A DNA stretch of 64,000 bases. Origin: Pseudomonadota bacterium. GTDB taxonomy: Bacteria; Pseudomonadota; Gammaproteobacteria; Pseudomonadales; UBA6940. Shown here piece by piece: positions 41,058-61,202 of the stretch. A program made the translations under genes and the position numbers. Position 1 is the stretch's first letter, and every line of letters begins with the position of its first letter. Location of the stretch: the NCBI GenBank assembly GCA_040386355.1, contig JAZKFP010000056.1, forward strand, positions 50,960 to 114,959, in the 5' to 3' direction. The notes under the pieces were generated by a model, which saw only the letters and a list, made by a program, of their open reading frames with translations, made no database searches and had not been told where the DNA came from.

Positions 41058-42713
41058 TTAGGCTCGTTTAGGTGTTGTCATTTGGCGGGATTTTTGGCTT
41101 GGCGGATTAATTCCCAGCGCTTTATTGCGATGCGGGTTCATAATTGGATGATTGCAAGCCATTTGCATAAATGCGTCAGCACCATGAGAAGCCCAATTGT
41201 GTAGGGGTGTTTCTTTCCAGGTCTGAGTTTTTGTGTTCCATTCTTTTTTATAATTTTCGAGCGCAATAATTCCGTCGTGACATTTATTTTCGTCGAATCG
41301 ACAAAAGCCAATAATCATGTGGCCAAGCGTAATTTGCGCTTCTTTTTCGATGACTTTCGTTGCGGTGAATTTGAGGTTGTAATTTGTTTTAGCGATCTGC
41401 ATTTTTGAACCATTTGCAGACCAATTGCGGTGTTTAATATCGTGCGGACCGAAATGCTGGTTATAGCGATAACCTAGGTCTCGTGTTTTATCTTTAATAA
41501 CTTGCGAGTAATGATCTAAATACAATTCGTTGTTGTGGTAATAATCGATGACGTGAATCATTGAGCCAACGGTTTGAGTAAACCAGATAGCAGTCGTATC
41601 GAGTCCTACGTCCCACCATGTATCGACGTTGTAAGCCGCGTTAAACGGTACAATTCCAATGCGACCATCAACATAAGCCCTTTCCATGGCGACTTTGAAA
41701 TAAGCGCCTTCTACAAATACTTCGAAAGCTTCTTTAGCAATTGTAGGAAATTCGCGCTTAATATTCGGGCCTAGCGTTTCTTCCTCTTTGATGTACCATT
41801 TTTGTTGCGCTTCGGTTAATACAATCTCATTCTCTTTTTCTAATTTAATAAAATACGCTTTAAATCGGTCATTAATTTCAACCGCTTTGCATTCTTCAGT
41901 ATTTAATTGATATTCGGGCGTCTCATACCATGGCGAGAATTGGAATTTAAAATCTTTTCGAGTCAGTGGAATATTATTTAAAGCACGTTGCTCAGCCTTA
42001 AGCGTCATTTCTGCGAAATAGCCTTCACGCCCTTCAGCAGTTGATTCAATAAATCCAACGCCGTTAATTGGTAGCGCTGGCAATGTTCCGGTAATTATCT
42101 CTTCAGCACGAATCGGGTATTTCTTACAGATCTTTCCGAACTCTGAAATTAATAACCACTGAGGCGTACCAGAACGAAATGACGTGCCTACTTGAATGCT
42201 TGAACCATTAGCGAATTTAACACCGGTTTGGGATTTAGATTTAATCGCTGAATAGTGCTTGAGCCAGTCCGGTAGATTCTCTAAAGCAAATAAAACTTTG
42301 TTTCTAAATAGTTCGCTAGCTTCTCTCGTACCGTGCGCAATAACGCCGCATGAGACGTTTGAATTAAAAAGACAGGTGTCAGAGAAGAGCAAGAGAATAA
42401 ACGTCGTAAAGCCTTGTTGGCGGGCTTTTAATACGAGGTTTCTTTTAGATACGTTCTTCAATAATTTACGTTGCGCCGCGTTCATTTTGAACTGAACAAG
42501 CTCACCGTCTTTGTTAATAATCTTGTATAAATTATCGAGACGCCACGCGCGACTTTTTAAACAGCGTTCAATCTTCTCTTCATTAGATAAAGTTGATAAA
42601 TCCAGCGGGATAACGTTATTTTTGCTTTTTTCAGGTGCGACATTTTTATGGACATTTTCTGCGACAATTGGCGAGTAATCGTGACGAATCTTAAACGCTG
42701 TCATCGAGTTCAT
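41058..42713 (-). CDS. Terminase large subunit (551 aa)
   Basis: Walker A variant ..RNLVLKARQQGFTTF.., Walker B-like ..WLLISEFG.., and a C-terminal nuclease-like half. It sits between the small-subunit candidate and the portal. Confidence 0.85.
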   Translation of the reverse strand: MNSMTAFKIRHDYSPIVAENVHKNVAPEKSKNNVIPLDLSTLSNEEKIERCLKSRAWRLDNLYKIINKDGELVQFKMNAAQRKLLKNVSKRNLVLKARQQGFTTFILLLFSDTCLFNSNVSCGVIAHGTREASELFRNKVLFALENLPDWLKHYSAIKSKSQTGVKFANGSSIQVGTSFRSGTPQWLLISEFGKICKKYPIRAEEIITGTLPALPINGVGFIESTAEGREGYFAEMTLKAEQRALNNIPLTRKDFKFQFSPWYETPEYQLNTEECKAVEINDRFKAYFIKLEKENEIVLTEAQQKWYIKEEETLGPNIKREFPTIAKEAFEVFVEGAYFKVAMERAYVDGRIGIVPFNAAYNVDTWWDVGLDTTAIWFTQTVGSMIHVIDYYHNNELYLDHYSQVIKDKTRDLGYRYNQHFGPHDIKHRNWSANGSKMQIAKTNYNLKFTATKVIEKEAQITLGHMIIGFCRFDENKCHDGIIALENYKKEWNTKTQTWKETPLHNWASHGADAFMQMACNHPIMNPHRNKALGINPPSQKSRQMTTPKRA

Positions 42714-43230
42714 CCCGATCTGCGTCTAGCGTTTTAGTTGAGCCATCGATTGCGCTTAGAATGGATGAAATAAAGTCAGGAATATTGCTGGCAGCTTCAT
42801 TCTCTTTCGTGTCGATCTTATCAAGCATGCCGATTGATTTAATGACGGCTTCTTTATCCGTGCCGATAAATACTTCTTTAGTATTTCCCTCTTCGTCTAC
42901 GATCGTTTCAATACCGCTCAAAGCCATATTCGCAACGGCTGTTAATGCGTGACGTTTGAAGAAATCACTTGATAATGTGCGCGACAACATTAATTCACGA
43001 TGCTTTGCTAACGTATCTCTCAAGCCGCCTTCTTTCATCATGGCTTTTGCTAATTTAACAATTGCCGAATAACTCGCGCCTTTTTCATCTTGTGACGCGG
43101 CGTTGTACGCTTTATAAATCGATCCCGTTTCAGCAAACGTTATAAAAAACGCTTGATGCTCATCGCTCATTGCGTCGAATAATTCTGAGAGTTCGGGATT
43201 AGCGAATGAGTCGCTCATGACTAACGACAT
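42691..43230 (-). CDS. Putative terminase small subunit (179 aa)
   Basis: Acidic protein directly upstream of, and overlapping, TerL. Called by position only. Confidence 0.5.
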   Translation of the reverse strand: MSLVMSDSFANPELSELFDAMSDEHQAFFITFAETGSIYKAYNAASQDEKGASYSAIVKLAKAMMKEGGLRDTLAKHRELMLSRTLSSDFFKRHALTAVANMALSGIETIVDEEGNTKEVFIGTDKEAVIKSIGMLDKIDTKENEAASNIPDFISSILSAIDGSTKTLDADRDELDDSV

Positions 43231-43706
43231 TAGCTAAGCCCCATGCATTGCTTGAATTCTTTTTGACGCCTAATTATTAATCCTGGAATTTGTTTTCCCT
43301 TTGATTTAGTCCAGCGAAGCATCTCAAGACAAGCGCCCTCGTAATCTTGAGTATTTAATTTTTTAACAAGTGTTGAATTGCAAAATGCTGTTGAACCTAC
43401 GTTATACGTAAATGAAACAAGCGAATCGTATTCATGCTGTGCTAGCGGTACTTTCACACAGCTTTTAATTGAACCTTCAAAAGTACTAACGTCGTTAAGT
43501 GCGCGTGATACAGCGTTAACCGGATCAATTCGTTGCCCCATCTGTACGCCGTGAGTCGTTCCAAATCCAAGCGTTGGAACATCTCCAGGGATTGGAATGT
43601 AGGCTTTATCTGAATAGCCTTCATGAATTATTAATCCAAGAAATGCGCTAGCTGAGATAGCGAGAGAAGCGATTGAGATTCGTAATTTAGAGCGCGGCTC
43701 AATCAT
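43230..43706 (-). CDS. Endolysin, T4/lambda-type lysozyme fold (GH24-like) with N-terminal signal-anchor (SAR-like)
   Basis: ..IHEGYSDKAYIPIPGDVPTLGFGTTHG.. gives Glu, Asp and Thr spacing. EYDSLVSFTYNVGSTAF.. is also present. The N-terminal weakly hydrophobic helix is ISIASLAISASAFLGLII. Confidence 0.85.
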   Translation of the reverse strand: MIEPRSKLRISIASLAISASAFLGLIIHEGYSDKAYIPIPGDVPTLGFGTTHGVQMGQRIDPVNAVSRALNDVSTFEGSIKSCVKVPLAQHEYDSLVSFTYNVGSTAFCNSTLVKKLNTQDYEGACLEMLRWTKSKGKQIPGLIIRRQKEFKQCMGLS

Positions 43707-44173
43707 TGTGATGACCTACTGCCGAACCACCAAGTGACAGCGGTTGTGGTTAGAAACACAGTTGAATTAATTGCCTCAGCGAACAGCTCAGGTGGAATTT
43801 CTGCGCCTGCTGTAAATAATTTGTATGAGATAGAAGTTTGCTGAATTAATAAATAACAAGTAATAAGAGGACGCATTAAGCCGCGTATAGCGTCGATGTA
43901 TTGATTGCCGTATGTAGCTTTGTCTGATTCAAAACTTGCTTGTAATGAGGCTTCTCTTGCGTTAATTAAAGCAATTTCTTTTCCTGTCTCACCTTCAACG
44001 CGAGCTTTTTCTATTTGCTTATCGAAATGCCTTAAATCAATTTCACGCATTTTTAATTGATGCGCGTTTTCTTCTTTCTTACCGACGAACTCAAGACCGG
44101 CTTTGCTTAATGCGCCAATCGTTCCGAGAATCCCACCGCCTGCCGCTGAAGCTAATAAATCAAGCATTAGCAA
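43703..44173 (-). CDS. Putative holin / lysis membrane protein (156 aa)
   Basis: Hydrophobic N-terminal (LLASAAGGGILGTIGAL) and C-terminal segments. It overlaps the endolysin start. Confidence 0.5.
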   Translation of the reverse strand: MLMLDLLASAAGGGILGTIGALSKAGLEFVGKKEENAHQLKMREIDLRHFDKQIEKARVEGETGKEIALINAREASLQASFESDKATYGNQYIDAIRGLMRPLITCYLLIQQTSISYKLFTAGAEIPPELFAEAINSTVFLTTTAVTWWFGSRSSQ

Positions 44174-44630
44174 CCACCTTAAGACTTAACTCTTCAAGTC
44201 TCATCAGAGCAGTTAAAGCAGCCAGCGCTGATTGATTCGTTGCAAGCTTTGCGCTGAAAGATTGATCCGCGATGATCTTTGCGTTTTTACGATTAAGACA
44301 AGCGAAGTGATCTAATACATCCGATTCATTTTTAAGTTTTGCAGTCGTGTTGTGATATGCGTAGATGTTTGCAGTAGCAGCGCCGACAAGCATTGAAGTT
44401 GTAAACGTATCTAATTGCGTCATCTTTTCATTAATTAAATAACTAATGACGAAATGATCTGTTATTGAAGCTGCGATAACTTGCCCTAGCGTTTTAATTG
44501 CGGCCGGCAATTTATCTATATCAATTACTGACTCGTGAACTAATTCCCCGCTCTGATTAACAGACACAATAGAAACCGCGTCTTTATCGCAAAACACGGC
44601 AGTTAGATGCGGATCATCAAGATTCTTCAT
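44160..44630 (-). CDS. Hypothetical protein (156 aa), first gene of the late operon
   Basis: Track ORF. No motif. Confidence 0.65.
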   Translation of the reverse strand: MKNLDDPHLTAVFCDKDAVSIVSVNQSGELVHESVIDIDKLPAAIKTLGQVIAASITDHFVISYLINEKMTQLDTFTTSMLVGAATANIYAYHNTTAKLKNESDVLDHFACLNRKNAKIIADQSFSAKLATNQSALAALTALMRLEELSLKVVANA

Positions 44631-44847
44631 GCGTTCAACTCACATTTTTATAGATGTTAATTGACGCTATCAGTTAAAAAATCGAAATTCAAAAGGAGTT
44701 ATATATTGATAAAATCGATAATTGATTGGCTTATATATCGGAAAAACAAATATACAAGACTAACAAATGGGGGAAATATATCGATAGGACTTAATTGTGA
44801 AATCGTGGCGATATTAGATTAAAGGAATGTATTTCCAAATTCCCCAA

Positions 44848-44913
44848 ATAGAAGTAGGTAATCTCAGATAGAAGTAGGTTATGGAAGTAGGCTCACATTA
44901 AATAGAAGTAGGT
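44848..44913. repeat. Four direct copies of a 12-mer ATAGAAGTAGGT (third copy ATGGAAGTAGGC)
   Basis: Copies lie at 44848-44859, 44868-44879, 44881-44892 and 44902-44913, in the intergenic region between the late operon and the moron island. Confidence 0.85.
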
Positions 44914-44946
44914 AAACTCTCGCTTTATGCTTCCTTGTGAGCAAAT

Positions 44947-45030
44947 CTTATTTCATTGCAAATCGATTTGAGCATCCCGCAATACATCAAACCATTGTTA
45001 TCTATAGATTTTCTTATTTCATCGCAAACC
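44947..45030. repeat. Two direct 18-bp repeats CTTATTTCAT(T/C)GCAAA(T/C)C
   Basis: 44947-44964 and 45013-45030, 16 of 18 identical, 66 bp apart. Confidence 0.7.
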
Positions 45031-45072
45031 ATGGTAAAGATAAATTATTTAATAAATATTCAAAATAAACCA

Positions 45073-45101
45073 TTGACACACCGGACGAAACGCCCTATAT
45101 T
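45073..45101 (+). promoter_or_regulatory. Near-consensus sigma70 promoter of the plus-strand moron island
   Basis: TTGACA (45073-45078), a 17-nt spacer, then TATATT (45096-45101). Confidence 0.65.
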
Positions 45102-45147
45102 TAAATCATGAAAATAACGCGAGATCACAAGCAAAGGAGATGAAATT

Positions 45148-45381
45148 ATGAAAAAACTTAACAAAAATTTTGTTGAAATTATTGAGCACATAAAAGCAGC
45201 TACAAGTATCGATATTAGCCAAATATCATTGGTATCTAATAAGCCAAAGACCTTTTTTCAAGTTGATCAATCTAAATTAAGTGATTTTGAAAAAAGAATG
45301 ATTCTAGATGCTGAGTGGCGCTATAAAAAATTCAGAATTGAAAATAACGGCTTTTTGGGCTGGGCTTTGTTAGCCGCTTAA
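45148..45381 (+). CDS. Hypothetical protein (77 aa)
   Basis: RBS AAGGAG. First gene after the promoter. Followed by the hairpin AGGGAC-N10-GTCCCT. Confidence 0.65.
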   Translation: MKKLNKNFVEIIEHIKAATSIDISQISLVSNKPKTFFQVDQSKLSDFEKRMILDAEWRYKKFRIENNGFLGWALLAA

Positions 45382-45450
45382 TTTTTAACCCAGGGACATC
45401 AAACGAGGTCCCTTTCAACCACCCACTAAAACATCATATGAGGTTTTACA

Positions 45451-45609
45451 ATGAACAAACTACTGCTCACGCTCATTCTAATTATTGCAAACCTAATTGT
45501 TTTTAAAGTCAGCTTCTTACTCGGCTGTTTAATGCTTATATCTGAGGCTTTTATTATCGGTGACGCTCTCGTGTTCCATGTTCGCAACTCAAGAGGTGTA
45601 GCACGATGA
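45451..45609 (+). CDS. Hydrophobic microprotein (52 aa); not in ORF track
   Basis: GAGG lies 7 nt upstream. Sequence MNKLLLTLILIIANLIVFKVSFLLGCLMLISEAFIIGDALVFHVRNSRGVAR*. Stop/start overlap (ATGA) with the next ORF. Confidence 0.55.
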   Translation: MNKLLLTLILIIANLIVFKVSFLLGCLMLISEAFIIGDALVFHVRNSRGVAR

Positions 45610-45749
45610 ACTCACTATTCCCAAACGCTCGTGGTTCTTTCGCAATTCTATCAATCGCATGTTGCTGCTTAGTGGCTTTACAAGAACCTAAAATATTTTC
45701 AGCTATGGCGCTTATGGCTCTTGCTGTAGCCATGCTTAGATCAAACTGA
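45606..45749 (+). CDS. Hydrophobic microprotein (47 aa); not in ORF track
   Basis: Sequence MNSLFPNARGSFAILSIACCCLVALQEPKIFSAMALMALAVAMLRSN*. Translationally coupled to the previous ORF. Confidence 0.5.
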   Translation: MNSLFPNARGSFAILSIACCCLVALQEPKIFSAMALMALAVAMLRSN

Positions 45750-45756
45750 GGATTCA

Positions 45757-45963
45757 ATGACAAAAATAGAACAACCTACACCACTACAAATCAAATCCCT
45801 TCGTGAGAGCGTGGGGCTAACTCAGAAACAAGCGGCTGAATTATTAGACGCAACGGAGCGAACTTGGCGAAGATGGGAATCTGATTCTGATTCAATTAAT
45901 ATTCCGAAATCTAAGTGGGAATTGTTTCTAATGAAAACGGTTACGATGCCTAAGAAAAAATAA
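45757..45963 (+). CDS. XRE-family helix-turn-helix protein (68 aa)
   Basis: ..IKSLRESVGLTQKQAAELLDATERTWRRWES.. is a classic HTH_XRE pattern. RBS GAGG. Confidence 0.75.
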   Translation: MTKIEQPTPLQIKSLRESVGLTQKQAAELLDATERTWRRWESDSDSINIPKSKWELFLMKTVTMPKKK

Positions 45964-45975
45964 TTAAAAAACTTA

Positions 45976-46473
45976 ATGAAATATACTTACTTGCAGGGCG
46001 TTGCGTCCTGTACTTTAGTTATTAATATAAGCCAGCACTTAATGTATAAAATAGAACCCTACAAGCTCAAAATCATTAACGATCATCAGATGATTAAATC
46101 AACAAACTATTGGGAATCGTTTCAAGCTCTCAATGGCTGGGTTTATTTAAGCTGGGGTGGCGGTTGTGCTCGTCTATTAATTCCGAAAGTAAGCTACAAA
46201 TATCTTATTAAAATGCGCACAGTGAAAAACATTGTTATTACTAAAGGCAGTTTTAAAGATAAATTAAATTGCTTTGAGATTATGTTCGAAGATGGTTCAG
46301 AGTCACCCTTTTCAATTATCATTCAACCTGAGCAAACCGATAAACTTTCATGGGATGACAAAGGCAAATTTCCTTTTACGGTTTGGACTGAACAAGGCAT
46401 GTTTAAAAAATTCTGGGGCTGGTATCGAACGGCTGTAAAACTTCCTTACTTAATGCCTCTTAAAAATATATGA
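45976..46473 (+). CDS. Hypothetical Trp-rich protein (165 aa)
   Basis: Track ORF. The start could be the internal Met at 46042. No motif. Confidence 0.6.
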   Translation: MKYTYLQGVASCTLVINISQHLMYKIEPYKLKIINDHQMIKSTNYWESFQALNGWVYLSWGGGCARLLIPKVSYKYLIKMRTVKNIVITKGSFKDKLNCFEIMFEDGSESPFSIIIQPEQTDKLSWDDKGKFPFTVWTEQGMFKKFWGWYRTAVKLPYLMPLKNI

Positions 46474-46682
46474 ACCTTCTCTACAAAAAAGCGCGCTACA
46501 TAAATAAACTTTTGAACGGGCCGGATGATAAAGAAGTATTTCGGCTTGGCGGCTTAGAGGTAAATAGCTCAAGCTTACAAGCTTGGCGTGCTGGCGTTGA
46601 AAAGTCTAACTACAGAGACATTACAAACGAACAGCTCGCGGCTTATATGGATGGTTTAATTAAGATTCTTACTAAAGATTAA
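46470..46682 (+). CDS. Hypothetical protein (70 aa)
   Basis: ATGA-coupled to the previous gene. Confidence 0.6.
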   Translation: MNLLYKKARYINKLLNGPDDKEVFRLGGLEVNSSSLQAWRAGVEKSNYRDITNEQLAAYMDGLIKILTKD

Positions 46683-46827
46683 TTAAATATTTTTCTACAA
46701 CGAGATACCAACTATAAAATGGAATAAATACAGCTATAACTTTCAAAAATCCCTGAGCAATTACAACTCCAGCAATCCAAGCTATCAACAACGCAAGAGC
46801 TAATAAATTATCTAAAAACCTAAACAT
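46672..46827 (-). CDS. Small membrane protein (51 aa), last gene of the early operon; not in ORF track
   Basis: RBS AGGAAG. Sequence MFRFLDNLLALALLIAWIAGVVIAQGFLKVIAVFIPFYSWYLVVEKYLINL*. Confidence 0.5.
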   Translation of the reverse strand: MFRFLDNLLALALLIAWIAGVVIAQGFLKVIAVFIPFYSWYLVVEKYLINL

Positions 46828-46838
46828 TTTAAAACTTC

Positions 46839-47150
46839 CTACCTAGTGATTTTACTATCCAACTCTCTTAACAACTTATGCGTCACTGACCCGATCAATA
46901 TCTTTTCGCGCTGATCGTCAAACACAAAATAATCTACTAAAAGCTCAATCGTCTGGCTGATCGTTTTAAGCCCCATTTCACGCCGTATATCATCTATTTT
47001 CTGTCGCGTGTACTTGGGAACTACTATTCGCCTTAGATATGCGGAGTGATCGTCGTCTGTGCAGCGAGAGTGAGAATAATCACGCTTCGCGCCTCTTACG
47101 TATGTTTCTTTAAGCTTAATTACATTTGGAACATTGCCAGCGCTTAACAT
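46839..47150 (-). CDS. Hypothetical protein (103 aa)
   Basis: Track ORF, co-oriented. Basic. Confidence 0.65.
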   Translation of the reverse strand: MLSAGNVPNVIKLKETYVRGAKRDYSHSRCTDDDHSAYLRRIVVPKYTRQKIDDIRREMGLKTISQTIELLVDYFVFDDQREKILIGSVTHKLLRELDSKITR

Positions 47151-47152
47151 TT

Positions 47153-47599
47153 TTACTCACCGAAAAATTCGATCATTGCCTCTTTCTCAATCGCTTCTGA
47201 AAAGAACAAACGCACCCATTTAATATATTTTTTAACTAATTCCGTTTCTACATCAGGATATAAATCATAGAGCGCATACATTGAGCTACAGTGAAAAATC
47301 TGCATTAAGTTTTTAGCGCCACGAATTGTTTTAGCGACGCTTTGCGCAATTTCAAAATCAACGTCTTTCACTGGATCAATTAAAAGCCCTGGCCTACGTC
47401 CGCGCCGTCTTACCTGCCTCCTCACTTCTAATACCTGCTCAACTGTAATGCTATATTTAGTTGCGATGTTTAAATCGTCGTTTGCTATTTTTGCAAAATA
47501 TTCATTAAAAACATCTTCAAAAATTGCTTTTTTTATTCTTTTTTCGATAGCAACCGAGCACTGCGGTTTTGCATACGACATACATTTCAAAGCCCCCAT
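47153..47599 (-). CDS. Hypothetical basic protein (148 aa), possible regulator
   Basis: Track ORF 47153-47638 trimmed to Met14 so that it abuts the dut stop. Contains an Arg-rich stretch RRQVRRRGRRPG. Confidence 0.55.
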   Translation of the reverse strand: MGALKCMSYAKPQCSVAIEKRIKKAIFEDVFNEYFAKIANDDLNIATKYSITVEQVLEVRRQVRRRGRRPGLLIDPVKDVDFEIAQSVAKTIRGAKNLMQIFHCSSMYALYDLYPDVETELVKKYIKWVRLFFSEAIEKEAMIEFFGE

Positions 47600-47600
47600 T

Positions 47601-48041
47601 TTAAACCCCAGTAGAGCCGAACCCACCAACTCGCACATTCTTGACGCTATCCCCGTTAATTAAAAATGGCGTGACGATCATTTGGCAAATTCGGTCGCCT
47701 TTTTTTAAAATAACTGTGTCTCTTGTGCGGTTTCTTATTTTTATAATAATTTCATTTGGATATTCATAATCCATGTCAATATCGCCAGCTAACAGCTCAA
47801 GTCTTGTCGACATTGATGAACGAATCGTTAAATCCCCATAGAAATTAAACATTCCAAACTCTTGAGCTTCTTTTGTTGTTTTCCAACAAACGCCTGAACT
47901 TATTTTAGCAGTTGCGTGCCGATTTATTTGAATATATTCAGGTAAATAAAAATCATACCCAGCAGCGCCTACAGTTCCCCGCTCTGGTAATTTAAAAGTT
48001 TTATCATTTGCAACGCGCGGTGCTTTTAAAAATTCAAACAT
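47601..48041 (-). CDS. dut: dUTP diphosphatase
   Basis: ..GAAGYDFYLPE.., ..IRSSMS.., ..GDIDMDY.., ..GDRICQMIV.., and the C-terminal ..GGFGSTGV motif 5. Confidence 0.85.
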   Translation of the reverse strand: MFEFLKAPRVANDKTFKLPERGTVGAAGYDFYLPEYIQINRHATAKISSGVCWKTTKEAQEFGMFNFYGDLTIRSSMSTRLELLAGDIDMDYEYPNEIIIKIRNRTRDTVILKKGDRICQMIVTPFLINGDSVKNVRVGGFGSTGV

Positions 48042-48426: not shown

Positions 48427-49123
48427 TCGCCCACCGTTTAAACTCTTGGAAGTGGTTGTAAAATCTTTGAGCTGCTTCGGGGTCGCTGTCGTACTCTGAA
48501 CGGCTACCTACATATGTCATAAAACGCATTACTTTTTCGGTTGAATCCAACAAGGATTTGGTGCGATCCATAAAATCCCAATCATCTAAATTTAATAGAT
48601 ATTTTTCATATTTCTTATAATTTTCCGATTGACAAACCTGTGCCGCGAACTGGGATAATGATTTGCAACCTAATTTTTTTCGTATTTCTTCAATTTTTAA
48701 AAGCTCTGAAATCGGCTGAGTATTGAAAACTTCTTGCAGCTCGCAAAAGTCCGACTCATCTTGTTCGCTGTGAACTTTTAAGTGGCCAAGACCAGGACGA
48801 TGCACAAATTTTCCTTTTCCGTTTTCATCGCCTACCATTGCGCGATAACCAACCTCGTTTATATGCTCTATAAAAGTTTTAGGCTTATGCGCTTCTACCT
48901 GATACAAAACCTCGCCCACTTCTTTAAGCGCCTGCTGTGGATCAACTGAGAGCGTCTCATCATCATTCACGCGAAACATAAAACATTTATAGCGAGCGCC
49001 TTCGCTGTCCATAAACGCCAAACCGTGCTCACGATCTAAAATATCAAACGTTACTTTTACGCCGCCCTTAGTCGTAATGATTGAACGGTTGACTTTCATT
49101 TCTTCAATGAATTTATCGAGCAT
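48410..49123 (-). CDS. Hypothetical protein (237 aa)
   Basis: Track ORF, overlapping neighbours. Confidence 0.7.
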   Translation of the reverse strand: MLDKFIEEMKVNRSIITTKGGVKVTFDILDREHGLAFMDSEGARYKCFMFRVNDDETLSVDPQQALKEVGEVLYQVEAHKPKTFIEHINEVGYRAMVGDENGKGKFVHRPGLGHLKVHSEQDESDFCELQEVFNTQPISELLKIEEIRKKLGCKSLSQFAAQVCQSENYKKYEKYLLNLDDWDFMDRTKSLLDSTEKVMRFMTYVGSRSEYDSDPEAAQRFYNHFQEFKRWANDQAK

Positions 49124-49568
49124 TTTTCACCCACTCATCAAAATCGATTGACTTAGCTTCTCCAGCACAATGAGCATTTAATTTAACTGCGATTTCTACG
49201 GCGTCGATTGCGTTTTTTCCAGAATGCATAACGCCCAAAGCCATATCTGCGCCTGCACCTAATGCAATATGCTTTGAAAAAATTGGATATGGAACGTGAG
49301 AATTTTCAATAAAATAAGTTGATCGATCTTTTTTAATCAGTAAAACATTACAAAGCATTTCTTCTTTTTGTTTAGAAGGGAAATCAGCTTTATTCATTCC
49401 TTTTTCAAATATCCATTCTACTAATTCAAGGCCTACTGCCGCTTCTCCCGATATACCAACCAAATATTCATCGTTACTAAATATTTTTTGACTGGAGTAA
49501 ACAGCATTACCCAAACAAACCAAGGAATCAGACGCTAATGTTTTCCCATCCCATGCTATGACTGTCAT
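49113..49568 (-). CDS. HslV/proteasome-beta-like Ntn-hydrolase (151 aa)
   Basis: Thr2 follows the initiator Met (MTVIAWDGKTLASDS..). ..YLVGISGEAAVGLELVEWI.. and ..IALGAGADMALGV.. align by eye with HslV TTIV..GDGQ.., ..AGFAGGTADAF.. and ..IAIGSGG.. Confidence 0.6.
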   Translation of the reverse strand: MTVIAWDGKTLASDSLVCLGNAVYSSQKIFSNDEYLVGISGEAAVGLELVEWIFEKGMNKADFPSKQKEEMLCNVLLIKKDRSTYFIENSHVPYPIFSKHIALGAGADMALGVMHSGKNAIDAVEIAVKLNAHCAGEAKSIDFDEWVKNAR

Positions 49569-52530: not shown

Positions 52531-52757
52531 GACAATTCCTTTATTTTTTTATTAATTTGGCTTCTTATTAGAGAGATCAATTCTTTTTTTAGAATTTCTA
52601 AAGTCTCTTTTTTATGTTCTTTGTGCATGTAGCTCGCCCCTTGAATTGCTGAAACTTCCAAAACAACTCTCTGGTTAAAACTTAATTCCATTGGCTCCAA
52701 ATCAGTAAATTTTGTGTAAATTGTTGGGCGATGAGTTTCGATAAATTTTATTTTCAT
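52527..52757 (-). CDS. Hypothetical protein (76 aa)
   Basis: Track ORF, coupled. Confidence 0.65.
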   Translation of the reverse strand: MKIKFIETHRPTIYTKFTDLEPMELSFNQRVVLEVSAIQGASYMHKEHKKETLEILKKELISLIRSQINKKIKELS

Positions 52758-53545
52758 AATTGCGGCCCTAAATCCATATCCCTATAACGGTCTTGCTGTT
52801 CCTGAGCCTTTCGAATTTCTTCGGTTCGGTCTCTTGGCAATGGGTTGCGCAAATTTGCAATAATGCTTGCGTAACGCGATCTATTTTTCTTAGCTAAACC
52901 TTCATCAATCGGAGGCGGTAAATACTTAAGGCCGTCAGGAAATTGTTTAAGATCGTTTAGGAAATACGTTTCATCGCCGTTATTTTTAGTCCCTGCTAAA
53001 CGTAAATTTTTATTTACTAAATCGGTACCGATTAACCCTTCGCGTCGAGCCTCGATCGTTTTATCGCGTATTACGCTTGCAGATTCTTCTCGGTTTAATC
53101 CAGTTGGTTGAGATAAAAACCAACGCGGTCTTTTTCCGGTAATTCGGGCAACTTTTAATTCTTGCTTGTAGGCTTCGATAAAAATCATATGCCCTTGAAT
53201 TAAATCACCACGGTCTAGCGCATCTTTGGCAATACCCCACGCCCTACTCATTTCGTCGGTTAAATATTCGCAATCCATTTCCTGTTTTGGAATTTTTGCC
53301 CAGGCCGTTTGTGGTTCTGGATGGCCGTCAGAAATACCCATGCACTCGATAACGTGCGAAGGATTTAACGTTCCCCATGTAACTTTTTTCAAAGCCTGAA
53401 TAAGCGCTGCACAAACTAATTCGAAGGGATATTCTTCAAGCATTTCCCACCAAGTCAGCAAAGCATCAGGCGAATAATCAACCTTGTACGTTTTGAATTT
53501 TGGCTGAACAAATTTAAAAAAATCTTGTTGCTGGTCTTGTCTCAC
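52754..53545 (-). CDS. Hypothetical protein (263 aa) downstream of the replication initiator; possible replication accessory/helicase-loading factor
   Basis: Position is analogous to lambda P. There is no Walker motif. Function is inferred from synteny only. Confidence 0.5.
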   Translation of the reverse strand: MRQDQQQDFFKFVQPKFKTYKVDYSPDALLTWWEMLEEYPFELVCAALIQALKKVTWGTLNPSHVIECMGISDGHPEPQTAWAKIPKQEMDCEYLTDEMSRAWGIAKDALDRGDLIQGHMIFIEAYKQELKVARITGKRPRWFLSQPTGLNREESASVIRDKTIEARREGLIGTDLVNKNLRLAGTKNNGDETYFLNDLKQFPDGLKYLPPPIDEGLAKKNRSRYASIIANLRNPLPRDRTEEIRKAQEQQDRYRDMDLGPQL

Positions 53546-54498
53546 GCCACACCCCCAATCCGATCCGAGTAAATAACCTGGCCTTCAAAGCAATCGTTTT
53601 GGGCACCAAACACGGATGGATCAACGTAATTTTTAATATCGAAATTCGGGTCGGACATCATCGCCGCGAATTTTTCGTCGTCAGTCATCGGTTTTGCAGA
53701 ACCTAATTCGCCGACGTAGTTATTAAAATTTTCAGCACTGAAAATCGTCTTGGGTCGCAAGTACTCGTACATTTTCGGATTGGTTAGCCAGGCTTTGCAT
53801 TTCAAATCGATCACGGCCATCAGCGTGGTTTCTGTGTGTTTCTCACGTAATCGCCCTATGATTAAATTCAAATTCGCTTTGACGTGCTCGAATCGCTTAC
53901 CCGATTTTAAATTCAGGTAATCCAAGATGCGTTTTGCAGGAATTAAAAAATTATTTTGATTTTTTTGAGGGGGGTCGTCGGGTTCGCCCGACATATCAGT
54001 TTCTTTTTTTAAACCTTTTTCTAATTCTTCTCCTAAACCTTTACCTATACCTAATCCTTTACCTATACCTTTATGGTTGAACGTCTGTTGCAACGGATGT
54101 TGAACGCCCGTTGAACGTCCGTTGAACGCCTGTTGAGTTTGAGTTGAATTATCATCAGAATTATCAATTTTTCTTTTATTAGCAGAAGCACGACCAGCAG
54201 TAATAGCTTTCTCTAATTTGTCTTTTGCCTTTTCTAATTCAGCTTCGATGCGTTTATGTTGCCACTTACCGTCAACGACGTTGAAGAACTGTTGCAACGT
54301 CTGTTCAACGGATGCCCAACGTTCGTTGGAAAATCTGCAAATTCTTGCAAGTCTTTCAGGTTCAGCAGGCAATGCTTTTCCGATTTGCCAATACGCCATA
54401 ATTAAACGCATATAAGCTAAATCTTCATCATCGGTTAAATAGATTGTGTCTGATAAATAATCATTCACATAAAAAGGCATGTATGGAATTCTGCTCAT
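53542..54498 (-). CDS. Replication initiator-like protein (DUF1376/YdaU-like N-domain + conserved phage replication C-terminal domain), 318 aa
   Basis: - N-terminus MSRIPYMPFYVNDYLSDTIYLTDDEDLAYMRLIMAYWQ.
- C-terminus ..ILDYLNLKSGKRFEHVKANLNLIIGRLREKHTETTLMAVIDLKCKAWL..
- A GIGKGLGIGKGLG linker.
- The gene contains 11-bp-periodic iterons. Confidence 0.7.
   Translation of the reverse strand: MSRIPYMPFYVNDYLSDTIYLTDDEDLAYMRLIMAYWQIGKALPAEPERLARICRFSNERWASVEQTLQQFFNVVDGKWQHKRIEAELEKAKDKLEKAITAGRASANKRKIDNSDDNSTQTQQAFNGRSTGVQHPLQQTFNHKGIGKGLGIGKGLGEELEKGLKKETDMSGEPDDPPQKNQNNFLIPAKRILDYLNLKSGKRFEHVKANLNLIIGRLREKHTETTLMAVIDLKCKAWLTNPKMYEYLRPKTIFSAENFNNYVGELGSAKPMTDDEKFAAMMSDPNFDIKNYVDPSVFGAQNDCFEGQVIYSDRIGGVA
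54038..54073. repeat. 18-bp tandem duplication (CCTTTACCTATACCTAAT x2, encodes GIGKGL GIGKGL)
   Basis: 54038-54055 and 54056-54073, directly abutting the iteron array. Confidence 0.8.
54076..54148. repeat. Iteron array: 7 copies of GTTGAACG-like 8-mers at 11-12-bp spacing (candidate ori)
   Basis: Repeat starts at 54076, 54087 (GTTGCAACG), 54099, 54110, 54121, 54132 (GTTGAG) and 54143 (GTTGAA). The spacing is not a multiple of 3. An AT-rich stretch follows. Confidence 0.75.
54271..54321. repeat. Second, looser cluster of G(T)TNAACG-like motifs at about 10-12-bp spacing
   Basis: GTCAACG 54271, GTTGAAG 54280, GTTGCAACG 54291, GTTCAACG 54303, CCCAACG 54315. It shares AACGTCTGTT(G)CAACGGATG with the first array. 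Confidence 0.55.
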
Positions 54499-55460: not shown

Positions 55461-55670
55461 TCAGGCGGTAGTTTTTTCTTTATATTTCTCTAAGACGTTA
55501 TTTAACGCCGTATATAAGTCGTAACGGCAAGACTTGAATAATCCCCTTTCAAGTCTGCTAATGGTTGCTTGAGTGCAACCTACATCTTCAGCGCATACAA
55601 GATTACTAATCTCGTTTTGACTGAGACCTAAGTTTCTAAGTTGTTGAACTATCTGCGTTGGTTTTATCAT
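55461..55670 (-). CDS. Cro-like HTH repressor (69 aa)
   Basis: Track ORF 55461-55772 trimmed to Met35 (the upstream part would be translated from the operator region). ..LRNLGLSQNEISNLVCAEDVGCTQATISRLERG.. is an HTH. It is divergent from the cI-like gene. Confidence 0.75.
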   Translation of the reverse strand: MIKPTQIVQQLRNLGLSQNEISNLVCAEDVGCTQATISRLERGLFKSCRYDLYTALNNVLEKYKEKTTA

Positions 55671-55676
55671 TCCTTG

Positions 55677-55705
55677 ATAGTAATACCCGCGCGTATATTC
55701 GTCAA
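55677..55705 (-). promoter_or_regulatory. PR-like early promoter (drives cro-like operon), apparently leaderless
   Basis: Minus strand: TTGACG (55705-55700), a 17-nt spacer, then TACTAT (55682-55677). The A of the cro ATG is the 7th nt after the -10. Operators O1 and O2 overlap the spacer and the -35. Confidence 0.6.
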
Positions 55706-55744
55706 TACTTGTATGTATTTTTATTAACCGATACTTTGACGTAT
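55683..55744. promoter_or_regulatory. Right operator triplet: three 14-bp ATAC-N6-GTAT sites
   Basis: O1 ATACCCGCGCGTAT 55683-55696. O2 ATACTTGTATGTAT 55705-55718. O3 ATACTTTGACGTAT 55731-55744. All lie between the divergent cro-like and cI-like genes. Confidence 0.8.
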
Positions 55745-55747
55745 ATT
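55719..55747 (+). promoter_or_regulatory. PRM-like maintenance promoter for the cI-like gene, apparently leaderless
   Basis: -10 TATATT (55742-55747) overlaps O3. The -35 is poor (TTTTAT 55719-55724) and abuts O2. The A of the cI ATG (55754) is the 7th nt after the -10. Confidence 0.45.
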
Positions 55748-55753
55748 TCGGCC

Positions 55754-56473
55754 ATGAAAAAACTACGATCATTTAGCCAAGCAATTTTAATTCTTGCGCG
55801 TCGCCTTCCGGCCGTCGTCAATCCTGATGGGTCTATCAATAAAACTGAGCTTGCTAAGCTGGCGGGTCTCAACCAACCCACTATGCAAAGAATATTGAAG
55901 GAAGGTGAACAGAAAACGATAAGCACTGCCTCAAGAGATAGGCTTGCAAAGTTGCTTAAATGCACGCCTGGCCAGATTGAAGGTATAGAACCGATACCTG
56001 AAATTGATGGTGACCTACCAACAAATAGTGCCGCAGATTATTTTACTGAATTTGTTACAAAAAATGCTTTGACAGCTACTAGCATTCCTATGTTATATCT
56101 GACCGAATTATCAGGAGTTGATAGTTCTCACGCAGCACAAGAACTGCGGAAGGATAAAACAAGGAAGATGTTACCTATGCCAATTACTTTGGGCTTATCT
56201 GAATCAGCTTTTTTGCTGGTCATTGATGAAAAAATTGAAACCGAAAAATTTATGACAGGCGAATCTGTTGTTATAGATCCTGAAGCAGTCCCTAAGACTG
56301 GAGGCTACGTATTAATAAAAGTCGAAGATGCCTTGATAGCCGTGTTTCGATCTGCAAAGACTGATAGCGGTTATAGATTTATTCCTGAAAGTAATCTCTT
56401 CCAAGAAATACATATGAATAGCCTTGAATGGCCATTTATAGGGGTTTGTCGTGCTGGATTAAGAGAGTTTTAA
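55754..56473 (+). CDS. cI-like repressor: N-terminal HTH + C-terminal S24/LexA-like domain (239 aa)
   Basis: Track ORF 55658-56473 trimmed to Met33. ..INKTELAKLAGLNQPTMQRILKEG.. is an HTH. The C-terminal beta-rich part ..FMTGESVVIDPEAVPKTGGYVLIKVEDALIAVFRS.. resembles the S24 autopeptidase fold, though the catalytic residues are not certain. Confidence 0.7.
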   Translation: MKKLRSFSQAILILARRLPAVVNPDGSINKTELAKLAGLNQPTMQRILKEGEQKTISTASRDRLAKLLKCTPGQIEGIEPIPEIDGDLPTNSAADYFTEFVTKNALTATSIPMLYLTELSGVDSSHAAQELRKDKTRKMLPMPITLGLSESAFLLVIDEKIETEKFMTGESVVIDPEAVPKTGGYVLIKVEDALIAVFRSAKTDSGYRFIPESNLFQEIHMNSLEWPFIGVCRAGLREF

Positions 56474-59005: not shown

Positions 59006-59234
59006 CGGAAGCGTAGTAATTAAAAACGAAATTGAGTTGAAGAATGAAATGATTCTAACGCTTGACTCATTAATATTGGCTCATTTTGAAATTAATAAAA
59101 TCATTACTGAATCGGTTGGTATTTTTAAACGGCTTCAGAGATTAACAAGAAATGAGCTTAATCTGCTGAATATTAAAGAAGCAAATCGGATTAAAAATCT
59201 AGATGAGTTCACAGGTCGGGAGATTAATTACTGA
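58983..59234 (+). CDS. Hypothetical protein (83 aa)
   Basis: RBS AAGGAG 9 nt upstream. Confidence 0.6.
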   Translation: MDNVQSIDGSVVIKNEIELKNEMILTLDSLILAHFEINKIITESVGIFKRLQRLTRNELNLLNIKEANRIKNLDEFTGREINY

Positions 59235-59968
59235 TGAAACTCACAAATGAGCAGTATCACGCAGATCGGGAGCACGTTTCTAAAACGTGGCTAGACAAGA
59301 TTAATAAGTCCCCTGCTCATTTGTATGAATATTTAAACGAAGAGCCAAAGGAAAAAACAGAAGCATTAATTTTTGGTGGTTTATTACACGAAATGGTTCT
59401 TGAACAGCATCACGAAAACTATGTTTTACCACCAAAAATTAATCGAAGGACAAAAGATGGAAAAGTTGAATGGACGGATTTTGTAGCATCCATAGGCAAT
59501 AAACAAATTATTACCCAAGAGATGTTAGATAAAGCTGAAAAAATGCGTCTTTCAATTTTCCAAAACAAATTTGCAAAAAGCTTATTAAGAAAAGGCGACC
59601 CTGAACAAACCGTATTTTACAAAGATGAGTCTGGCGTGTTGTGTAAAGCACGTGCGGATTGGGTTAGTGAGAATGGCACAGTTGATTTAAAAACAACGCT
59701 AGATGCAAGCCACGAAGGATTTAAAAGAGCACTTCGTAAATATCGCTACAACGTACAAGCGGCGCATTACGAGCAAGGTTTTAATGTAGGTGAATTCATA
59801 TTTATCGCAATTGAAAAAGAACCGCCCTACTGTTGCGCCGTATATAGGACAAGCGCTTCATCTTTTTACGAAGGCAAAGAAGAAAGAAAAAGAAATCTTG
59901 AAACGTATATCGAATGCAAAGAAAAAAACGAATGGCCAGGTTATCCCGAAATTATTCAAGAGGTTTAG
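59234..59968 (+). CDS. PD-(D/E)XK family exonuclease (RecB/Cas4-like fold; RecT partner)
   Basis: ..FGGLLHEMVLE.., ..CKARADWVSENGTVDLKTT.. (D...D/E-x-K), ..YRYNVQAAHYEQGF... It lies immediately upstream of recT. Confidence 0.8.
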   Translation: MKLTNEQYHADREHVSKTWLDKINKSPAHLYEYLNEEPKEKTEALIFGGLLHEMVLEQHHENYVLPPKINRRTKDGKVEWTDFVASIGNKQIITQEMLDKAEKMRLSIFQNKFAKSLLRKGDPEQTVFYKDESGVLCKARADWVSENGTVDLKTTLDASHEGFKRALRKYRYNVQAAHYEQGFNVGEFIFIAIEKEPPYCCAVYRTSASSFYEGKEERKRNLETYIECKEKNEWPGYPEIIQEV

Positions 59969-59971
59969 AAA

Positions 59972-60703
59972 ATGTCAGAAGCGCTAGCAGTAGTACAGCC
60001 CAAAAAAGGAATAATTGAACAGATGGCCGAGCGTTACGACCTTGACCCAAAATTCTTTCATAAGACTTTATCGTCAACGATTATGCCCAGCAATCAAAAC
60101 GTTAGTAATGAGCAATTATGCGCATTTTTATTAGTTGCCAAGCAATACGATTTAAACCCATTTGTTAAAGAGATTTACGCTTTCCCAAATAAAGGCGGAA
60201 TTCAACCCATCGTTTCTATTGATGGTTGGATGAAAATTATTAACGACCAACCAACCTTTGACGGCATGAATTTCAAAGATGAATTAGATGCCGAAGGTAA
60301 ATTAATAAGCGTCACATGCGTGATGTATCGCAAAGATCGAAAACATCCAATAGAAGTTACTGAATATATGAGCGAGTGCAAAAAGAATTCTGAACCTTGG
60401 AATAAATGGCCTGCTCGCATGCTTCGACACAAGGCAACGATTCAAGCAGCACGTTACGCCTTCGGATTATCAGGAATTATGGAGCCAGACGAAGCTGAAC
60501 GATTAAAAGAAATTAATTCAAGTTACAACCCTAAAACCGTCGAATCAGTTCAAGAGCTAGAAAGAAAAATACTTGGCGAAGATGAAGACGATATTGAAGC
60601 TGTACTTGAAGCCAAAGCAAAAGAATTAAAAGCCGAATTTAAAAAGCAAGTTCAACAAGACGAATGGATCGATGATGACACAGGAGAAATAGTCAATGGT
60701 TAA
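59972..60703 (+). CDS. recT: RecT-family single-strand annealing protein
   Basis: ..QYDLNPFVKEIYAFPNKGGIQPIVSIDGWMKIIN.., ..WNKWPARMLRHKATIQAARYAFG... It sits between the exonuclease and SSB genes. Confidence 0.85.
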   Translation: MSEALAVVQPKKGIIEQMAERYDLDPKFFHKTLSSTIMPSNQNVSNEQLCAFLLVAKQYDLNPFVKEIYAFPNKGGIQPIVSIDGWMKIINDQPTFDGMNFKDELDAEGKLISVTCVMYRKDRKHPIEVTEYMSECKKNSEPWNKWPARMLRHKATIQAARYAFGLSGIMEPDEAERLKEINSSYNPKTVESVQELERKILGEDEDDIEAVLEAKAKELKAEFKKQVQQDEWIDDDTGEIVNG

Positions 60704-61202
60704 TAAATGTCTATTCATAGGCCGGTTAGCAAAAGACCCTGAAACTAAATATACACCAGGCGGCGTTGCAATTTGTACTTTCTCCATCGCAGTTGGAAAA
60801 AAATACAAAGATAAAAAAACAGGTGAGCAGCAAGAAAAAACAACTTGGGTAAATATTAAATGCTTCAACCGACTAGCGGAAGTCATGACTGAGTATCTAC
60901 GCAAAGGCTCCAAGGTTTACGTTGAAGGCGAATTAGAAACGGAGTCATGGGACGATCGCGAGACTGGGAAGAAAGTTTATAAAACTGTTATTAATGCGAA
61001 TGAGATACAGATGCTCGATTCAAGAAATGAAGCTCAAGAAGCAATTGAAACGGTGCAAAGCATGAACCCAGAAACTAAAAAATTACTAATGCAACGTTTA
61101 AGAGAATCAGAACAAAGACCAGAAAGACAGCCGGTTAAATCTCACAAACAAATTGAAGCTGAATCAACCTGGGACGAAGATCGTGACGGCATACCATTTT
61201 AA
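60696..61202 (+). CDS. ssb: Single-stranded DNA-binding protein
   Basis: OB-fold N-terminus MVNKCLFIGRLAKDPETKYTPGGVAICTFSIAV..TTWVNIKCFNRLAEV..YLRKGSKVYVEGEL and an acidic tip ending DEDRDGIPF. Confidence 0.9.
   Translation: MVNKCLFIGRLAKDPETKYTPGGVAICTFSIAVGKKYKDKKTGEQQEKTTWVNIKCFNRLAEVMTEYLRKGSKVYVEGELETESWDDRETGKKVYKTVINANEIQMLDSRNEAQEAIETVQSMNPETKKLLMQRLRESEQRPERQPVKSHKQIEAESTWDEDRDGIPF

Follow-up and report, generated by a model that had tools for sequence, protein, structure and literature searches.

A lambdoid prophage carries a candidate moron operon that encodes an Aca-like regulator and a member of a widespread unannotated protein family

Introduction

Why does a lambdoid prophage keep six small genes on the plus strand between an early and a late operon that both run on the minus strand, and what might those genes do? 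The question arises in a 64,000-nucleotide stretch of a metagenome-assembled Pseudomonadota genome (NCBI GenBank assembly GCA_040386355.1, contig JAZKFP010000056.1, positions 50,960 to 114,959), here called the window, in which the whole prophage occupies positions 14241-55772. The six open reading frames (ORFs), referred to below as the island, lie at 45148-46682; the early operon ends beside them with a gene at 46672-46827, and the late operon begins on their other side. An earlier note, made from the sequence alone, described the island as an accessory cassette with its own promoter, in which a helix-turn-helix (HTH) protein and the product encoded downstream of it would form a regulator or antitoxin with its effector.

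With moderate confidence, we read the locus as a mosaic accessory (moron) operon of the prophage that is separate from the phage early and late programme and carries an Aca-like autoregulator. Prophage moron cassettes as such are nothing unusual; what stands out in this one is its orphan content. Its most likely role, in exclusion or anti-defence, is putative.

Results

An independently promoted island opposes both flanking operons

All six genes are co-oriented, oppose both flanks and sit where the earlier note had placed them, behind the promoter TTGACA-17 nt-TATATT (Table 1). This promoter is the sole match of at least 11/12 to the consensus on either strand of the 64-kb window (block-shuffled mean, 3.3) and the best site in a promoter-like scan of the region. 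Its -10 element ends 46 nt ahead of the first start codon, and the intervening 5' untranslated region is unstructured, with a fold of -1.2 kcal/mol. The first four genes are preceded by Shine-Dalgarno (SD) sites of the AGGAG/GAGG type at 4-7 nt. To score codon usage, we used a log-odds measure trained on 43 long ORFs of the window, for which the 95th percentile of the null is 0.16 per codon; the 77-, 68-, 143- and 70-aa genes score 0.23-0.29 and are thus coding-like. The GC content of the island is slightly lower than that of its flanks (0.31-0.40 vs about 0.37-0.44).

Two hairpins divide the island. The one that follows the 77-aa gene, AGGGAC-N10-GTCCCT, is present as the earlier note had reported and is weak: its folding z-score is -2.3, 7/200 shuffles fold as well, only UUU follows the stem, and the terminator scan missed it. 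At best it is a weak terminator or attenuator. The second, terminator-like hairpin stands in the 78-nt gap, without an SD site, that separates the HTH gene from the probable start codon of the 143-aa gene. Neither the terminator scan nor folding placed a terminator at the 3' end of the island, and there is none between the 70-aa gene and the convergent early gene. The 3' end of the 70-aa gene overlaps that early gene by 11 nt, and transcriptional collision or antisense effects are possible at this convergence.

The first gene encodes a basic orphan (NCBI V4629_03130) that matches only itself among 5.8 billion proteins and has no family or PDB match. For the island as a whole, a megablast search against INPHARED found nothing. 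The only further copy is Logan contig L001, which is 100% identical, so there is no substitution pattern to read.

Two coupled hydrophobic microproteins are probably encoded in the gap upstream of the HTH gene

The 375-nt gap between the 77-aa and HTH genes contains two coupled hydrophobic ORFs of 52 and 47 aa that gene callers miss, and an antisense 69-aa ORF overlaps them. All of this agrees with the earlier note. Judging from their layout, the two microORFs are probably translated as membrane peptides. Both have an SD site 7 nt upstream, the stop of the 52-aa ORF overlaps the ATG of the 47-aa ORF (ATGA), and together they cover 299/375 nt. The 47-aa ORF consists of two hydrophobic stretches divided by QEPK, its stop precedes the HTH start by 7 nt, and the SD site of the HTH gene lies inside it. 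In 5000 dinucleotide shuffles of the gap, 1.3% reached the coverage criterion (at least 290 nt), and none of the 5000 also had two ORFs with two SD sites.

Could 45382-45756 be an untranslated spacer or RNA element instead, or could the antisense ORF be the real gene? Nothing is called here in two independent annotations, those of NCBI and of L001, and neither microORF has a homologue among the 5.8 billion proteins or in translated phage genomes. Their codon scores fall in the non-coding range, the antisense ORF scores just as well, and codon usage is uninformative. Poor scores are expected of very hydrophobic peptides, and an equally low one was obtained for a neighbour that is probably a real gene (103 aa, 46839-47150). 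The antisense ORF starts with TTG and has no clear SD site by eye, and the Rfam scan of 44000-47500 gave no match. Together with the ATG starts, GAGG-type sites, ATGA overlap and the result of the shuffles, these points make it decidedly unlikely that the microORFs are not genes.

The HTH protein resembles Aca10 and is linked to the genes upstream of it

The fourth gene encodes a bare DNA-binding domain. Its best match in the whole PDB is 7XI5 (Aca10; E = 1.8e-9), in an alignment that runs nearly end to end (residues 6-62 vs 5-59 of 65) and includes the C-terminal WELFL(L/M)KT. Further PDB matches are Aca3 (E = 1.7e-5) and three Aca1 entries, with HigA-2 only at E = 0.12. The Aca10 residues Q22 and R34 are conserved. 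In profile searches the protein matches, apart from HTH_31, HTH_3 (22.5 bits, cut-off 23) and phrog_7950 (E = 1e-10). NCBIfam places it nearest to the VC1465 (XafT) family, whose N-terminal HTH it matches with 41 bits where the cut-off is 70, and antitoxin HTH models of Pfam and NCBIfam, among them Xre-like-HTH and MqsA, are matched weakly. The similarity to relatives in IMG/VR was confined to the generic HTH core, and there is no paralogy between the 68-aa and the 70-aa protein.

Aca10 is the repressor of the acrIC7-acrIC6-aca10 operon of Pseudomonas citronellolis and binds a 19-21-bp palindrome overlapping a strong promoter (PMC9410881). Aca genes typically follow acr genes, at the end of the operon, and HTH proteins of the Aca6, Aca9 and Aca10 types resemble HigA2-type antitoxins, whose toxin gene lies upstream (PMC9410906). 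Since partners are upstream in both classes, the functional partners of the island HTH would, in either model, be the upstream genes. With the acr-aca10 operon the island has in common a strong sigma-70-type promoter, small orphan genes and an HTH_31 protein of 65-68 aa. It differs in having two genes beyond the HTH gene and, upstream of it, two membrane peptides and a basic protein, as well as in the operator and DNA-binding residues considered below. The geometry also agrees with the short-gene-operon rule of AcaFinder, which asks for genes on the same strand, gaps below 250 bp and proteins all below 200 aa (PMC9765179): here gaps of 69, 7 and 78 (or 12) nt precede the second, fourth and fifth genes, the third and sixth genes overlap their predecessors, and no protein exceeds 165 aa. 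By analogy with Aca repressors, the 68-aa protein is likely an operon autoregulator that restrains the strong promoter.

The pairing of the HTH with the downstream protein, proposed in the earlier note, found no support. A terminator-like hairpin and the 78-nt SD-less gap separate the two genes, and the HTH gene is tightly joined to its upstream neighbours instead. Members of the family of the downstream protein are also found without this HTH in 24 loci, in several fragments and on plasmids.

The downstream protein belongs to a widespread family that has no annotation

In the earlier note this downstream product was a Trp-rich protein of 165 aa. The open frame and its Trp residues are there as described, and the product is probably shorter: the gene most likely starts at ATG 46042, giving 143 aa, because homologues of about 140 aa align from that Met and the residues that follow it form the first strands of the predicted structure. 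The NCBI entry (V4629_03140) begins at an internal Met, so that its 127 aa lose the first beta-strands of the predicted fold.

A word-indexed search returned only the NCBI copy and two homologues of about 140 aa. An exhaustive profile search returned 1123 representatives of clusters formed at 50% identity at E <= 1e-3, and 845 at E <= 1e-10, again typically of about 140 aa and with N-termini that agree with a product of 143 aa. Near-invariant residues include N13, T21, R44, E79, D84 and R129. The AlphaFold model reached a pLDDT of 94.5 with a 114-sequence profile, compared with 38.6 with three sequences, and has no Foldseek match in PDB or BFVD. No Pfam family is common to the 114 members, even at E = 1; NCBIfam, PADLOC and PDB-sequence searches gave no match and PHROGs only an insignificant one (E 0.027). 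The lone fusion domain seen in the family is one DUF4262, and members are labelled 'hypothetical protein' in every source consulted. The island copy is basic, with a pI of 9.4 against a family median of 5.7.

Members of the family occur in 26 loci from Gamma-, Alpha- and Deltaproteobacteria, Planctomycetota, Verrucomicrobiota, Spirochaetota and others, on one IMG/VR contig and in 1155 PLSDB plasmids. Of these plasmids 992 are conjugative, most are from Escherichia and Salmonella, and those examined are IncI-type, including R64. No INPHARED phage carries a member, and we found no paper or supplement that cites the plasmid homologues by accession. An ORF of R64 (NC_005014 44010-44423, WP_000465036) is 40% identical to the 143-aa protein (E = 2e-35), and R64 WP_000465036 and WP_001401590 of IncI-gamma/K1 have the motifs TNYW, RLL(V/I)P, E(I/L)(M/L)FED and YR..(L)P in common with it. 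The settings differ: on IncI plasmids only 1 nt separates the gene from a tyrosine recombinase gene downstream of it, with par and imp genes adjacent, and the island copy is a prophage gene with a DUF1456-like gene as its coupled partner. The IncI homologue is co-oriented with the ArdA/PsiB/SSB genes of the leading region, but it is 23 kb from oriT, beyond par/imp.

The 88 genes neighbouring family members include orphan DNA methylases (3), PAPS-reductase/DUF3440 genes (3), integrases and transposases. In two loci (L021 and L024) an IbrA-like (PAPS reductase + DUF3440) and IbrB-like (ParB_N) pair lies directly upstream of the homologue, and on non-enteric plasmids the neighbours include methylase, DUF4942, SSB and GIY-YIG genes and, once, a tandem paralogue. 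The other five island proteins never co-occur with the family in the 24 genomic or viral loci, the several fragments or the plasmids, and no small partner is conserved downstream of its members. For both of these reasons the 143-aa protein appears to be encoded by a stand-alone cargo gene of mobile elements. An effector role under control of the HTH does not fit this, and a toxin role is unlikely.

Some individual loci are worth recording. Tandem paralogues of the 143-aa protein are present in the Thioalkalivibrio plasmid pTK9001 (L045 4579-5444), where they adjoin genes for a GIY-YIG nuclease, a PrlF/YhaV toxin-antitoxin pair and two DNA methyltransferases, and in L030 (3968-4976). In L002 (1-600) a homologue forms a solo cargo gene on the border of an integrated element: it begins 50 nt past the 3' end of a tRNA gene, and a clean terminator comes after it.

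The last island gene is joined to the 143-aa gene by an ATGA stop/start overlap. Its product is a borderline member of DUF1456, a family without known function, and has neither an NCBIfam nor a phage match. The statement of the earlier note that no island protein belongs to a recognised family therefore stands for most of them, the exceptions being this borderline DUF1456 protein and the generic XRE-type HTH.

Weighing the possible functions

The position, orientation and promoter support the earlier proposal that an accessory cassette with a promoter of its own, facing against its neighbours, sits where the early and late regions meet. What such a cassette might do was weighed against the known systems that it resembles. 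The most specific alternative is a strict acr-aca operon, in which the small orphan genes upstream of the HTH, above all the 77-aa gene, would inhibit CRISPR-Cas or another defence, and the HTH would repress them after an initial burst. The full-length likeness of the HTH to Aca10, including WELFL(L/M)KT, suggests this, as do the gene order, in which the HTH comes after a strong constitutive-type promoter and small orphan genes as reported for acr-aca operons, the AcaFinder geometry and the company of anti-restriction-type genes that the 143-aa family keeps elsewhere. An inverted repeat is reported to be always present in the core promoter of acr-aca operons (PMC9410906), yet the island promoter has none between or over its -35 and -10 elements, and thus no evident Aca-type operator. 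Operator-like sequences were limited to CAAATCGATTTG at 44959-44970 and an AT palindrome that precedes the -35 element, at 45046-45058. Nor is Aca10 R44 conserved, and the candidate proteins are basic, two of them being membrane peptides. Most known anti-CRISPR and DNA-mimic anti-restriction proteins are acidic. The reading is attractive and fails the operator test, and we regard the strict form of it as rather unlikely. A broader version is similarly doubtful: that the 143-aa family is a new establishment or anti-defence class, with a fold unseen in solved structures, and is co-expressed here with an Aca-like regulator and membrane microproteins as an 'anti-defence island'.

A toxin-antitoxin or abortive module, with the hydrophobic peptides or the 143-aa protein as toxins and the HTH as antitoxin or repressor, would also place small genes directly upstream of a short XRE HTH, the arrangement of HigBA2-type reverse-order operons. 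Membrane toxins are usually small, hydrophobic and some 50 aa long, a form that the microproteins match. The microORFs lie where the toxin gene of a HigA2-type system would be, upstream of an HTH of the Aca10 type that resembles such antitoxins (PMC9410906), and the HTH weakly matches the Xre-like-HTH and MqsA antitoxin models. Against this, the island has no RelE/HigB-like toxin, the HigA-2 match is weak, and 68 aa leave the HTH no room for an extra, toxin-neutralising segment. Pfam, NCBIfam and PADLOC give no toxin-family match for any island protein. In many loci and on more than 1000 plasmids the 143-aa family stands by itself, with no partner conserved, and there is no promoter-like site on the minus strand opposite the microORFs that would suggest a type I antisense RNA. 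The assignment is weak, and we consider such a module highly improbable. The search for defence systems that the earlier note had proposed likewise gave no significant island match in PADLOC (v2), where the best match had E 0.003 and about 15 bits.

We therefore return to the moron operon with an Aca-like autoregulator, against which several of the observations also weigh. The missing core-promoter repeat bears on autoregulation, and so does the HTH itself, in which R44, critical for DNA binding in Aca10, and G49, at the dimer, lie within a loop that has a 2-residue indel and are not conserved in the alignment. The microORFs score no better on codon usage than the antisense ORF. The island proteins are all basic (pI 8.7-10). 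The IncI homologue lies outside the leading region proper. No close relative of the phage in which the slot could be compared turned up in INPHARED, IMG/VR or the JGI metagenomes (best TerL identity, about 50%).

Prophage context and neighbouring features

The coordinates of the island and of its surroundings are collected in Table 1. The late operon continues from its start into lysis, packaging and structural genes; its phrog_6637 protein is possibly a holin, to judge from hydrophobic stretches. We considered whether the island could be part of lysis or late control and ruled this out: the lysis genes are in the late operon on the other strand, and the sole recognisable regulator of the island is a generic XRE HTH.

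Among contigs with TerL relatives in IMG/VR and the JGI metagenomes, none has the island or the flank genes (lysis, dUTPase, small terminase) in common. Some distant TerL relatives have opposite-strand blocks upstream of the terminase gene, and a possible variable early/late junction would fit this. One distant TerL relative (L006 1960-3525, 39% identity) carries a block of small opposite-strand ORFs between its early and its lysis/terminase genes, with unrelated gene content.

Between the late operon and the island promoter lie several repeats. Four direct repeats ATAGAAGTAGG(T/C), three of them exact, are spaced by 20, 13 and 21 bp; the window has no exact copy elsewhere, and 0/100 shuffles reach the observed count. 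These could bind a late-gene activator or be of an iteron or packaging type. A second repeat, TCTTATTTCAT(T/C)GCAAA, occurs twice, 66 bp apart, each copy followed by a CAAACCAT(T/G)GT-like sequence. The repeats of the divergent region 44848-45028 are possible regulator sites for the late or the island promoter, and may or may not belong to the island.

Table 1 Features of the island and of the surrounding prophage (window coordinates)
Feature	Coordinates	Strand	Remarks
sigma-70 promoter TTGACA-17 nt-TATATT	45073-45101	+	11/12 consensus match
77-aa basic orphan protein	45148-45381	+	pI 9.6; AGGAG SD 7 nt upstream; codon score 0.23, coding-like
hairpin AGGGAC-N10-GTCCCT	45392-45413	+	after 77-aa gene; -14 kcal/mol, z = -2.3
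52-aa hydrophobic microprotein	45451-45609	+	GRAVY 1.40; ATG, GAGG 7 nt upstream; codon score -0.04 (ambiguous)
47-aa hydrophobic microprotein	45606-45749	+	GRAVY 1.07; GAGGTG 7 nt upstream; codon score 0.03 (ambiguous)
antisense 69-aa ORF	45554-45763	-	TTG start; GRAVY -0.28; codon score 0.00
68-aa XRE-type HTH, Aca10-like	45757-45963	+	Pfam HTH_31 27.9 bits, cut-off 27
terminator-like hairpin	45992-46012	+	9-bp stem, 3-nt loop, then CUUUAGUUAUU; top terminator call in region
143-aa Trp-rich protein (probable start)	46042-46473	+	open frame back to 45976 = 165 aa; 7 Trp in 165-aa ORF
70-aa protein, borderline DUF1456 (YehS-like)	46470-46682	+	PF07308 27.9 bits, cut-off 27; residues 6-65 of 70
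last early gene, 51-aa hydrophobic protein	46672-46827	-	phrog_16613, E = 1e-9
dUTPase	47601-48041	-	early operon
HslV-family peptidase homologue	49113-49568	-	early region; phrog_1040, E = 5e-31
replication genes	52754-54498	-	early operon
cro-like gene	55461-55772	-	early operon
CI-like repressor	55658-56473	+	lysogeny/recombination side
exo, bet, ssb genes	59234-61202	+	lysogeny/recombination side
large terminase (TerL)	41058-42713	-	late operon
endolysin	43230-43706	-	late operon
late operon start	44630	-	continues into lysis, packaging, structural genes
direct repeats ATAGAAGTAGG(T/C), four copies	44848-44913		spacing 20, 13, 21 bp; between late operon and island promoter
TCTTATTTCAT(T/C)GCAAA, two copies	44946-45035		66 bp apart; each then CAAACCAT(T/G)GT-like sequence
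perfect 12-bp palindrome CAAATCGATTTG	44959-44970		upstream of island promoter

Discussion

The island is most readily compared with phage morons, which likewise have their own host-type promoter and hairpin-bounded units, an orientation opposite to both neighbours and a place at the early/late junction. It departs from them in that three modules follow one another, with six genes in all where a moron has one, in having no clear end terminator before it runs 11 nt into the convergent early operon, and in that no lysogenic-conversion or defence function can be assigned to it.

From the gene layout, signals, homologies and neighbourhoods described above we propose the following scheme for its expression, autoregulation and biochemical functions. 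The near-consensus host sigma-70 promoter would need no phage factor, and transcription would therefore be possible in the lysogen and immediately on infection. The first module would yield the orphan 77-aa protein and end at the weak hairpin. In the second, the coupled 52- and 47-aa membrane microproteins would be made together with the Aca10-like HTH encoded 7 nt further on, and the HTH may restrain the strong promoter, as Aca repressors and the controller proteins of restriction-modification systems do. The stronger hairpin would then lower read-through into the third module, in which the 143-aa protein, of the widespread family carried by plasmids and integrative elements, is coupled to the 70-aa DUF1456-like protein. 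The targets of the products would be the host or competing mobile elements, with the membrane peptides serving as putative exclusion-type factors and the 143-aa protein as putative establishment- or anti-defence-type cargo.

Accessory cassettes at the early/late junction are where phages hold genes for conflict with hosts and rival mobile elements. Here, the Aca10-like HTH points to its three upstream orphan genes, which could be screened cheaply as candidates for anti-defence or exclusion. The most useful result of the analysis is the widespread unannotated family that lies behind the '165-aa unknown' of the island and is present on the classic IncI1 plasmid R64. If the 143-aa family is indeed an anti-defence or establishment factor, this would bear on the spread of common resistance plasmids.

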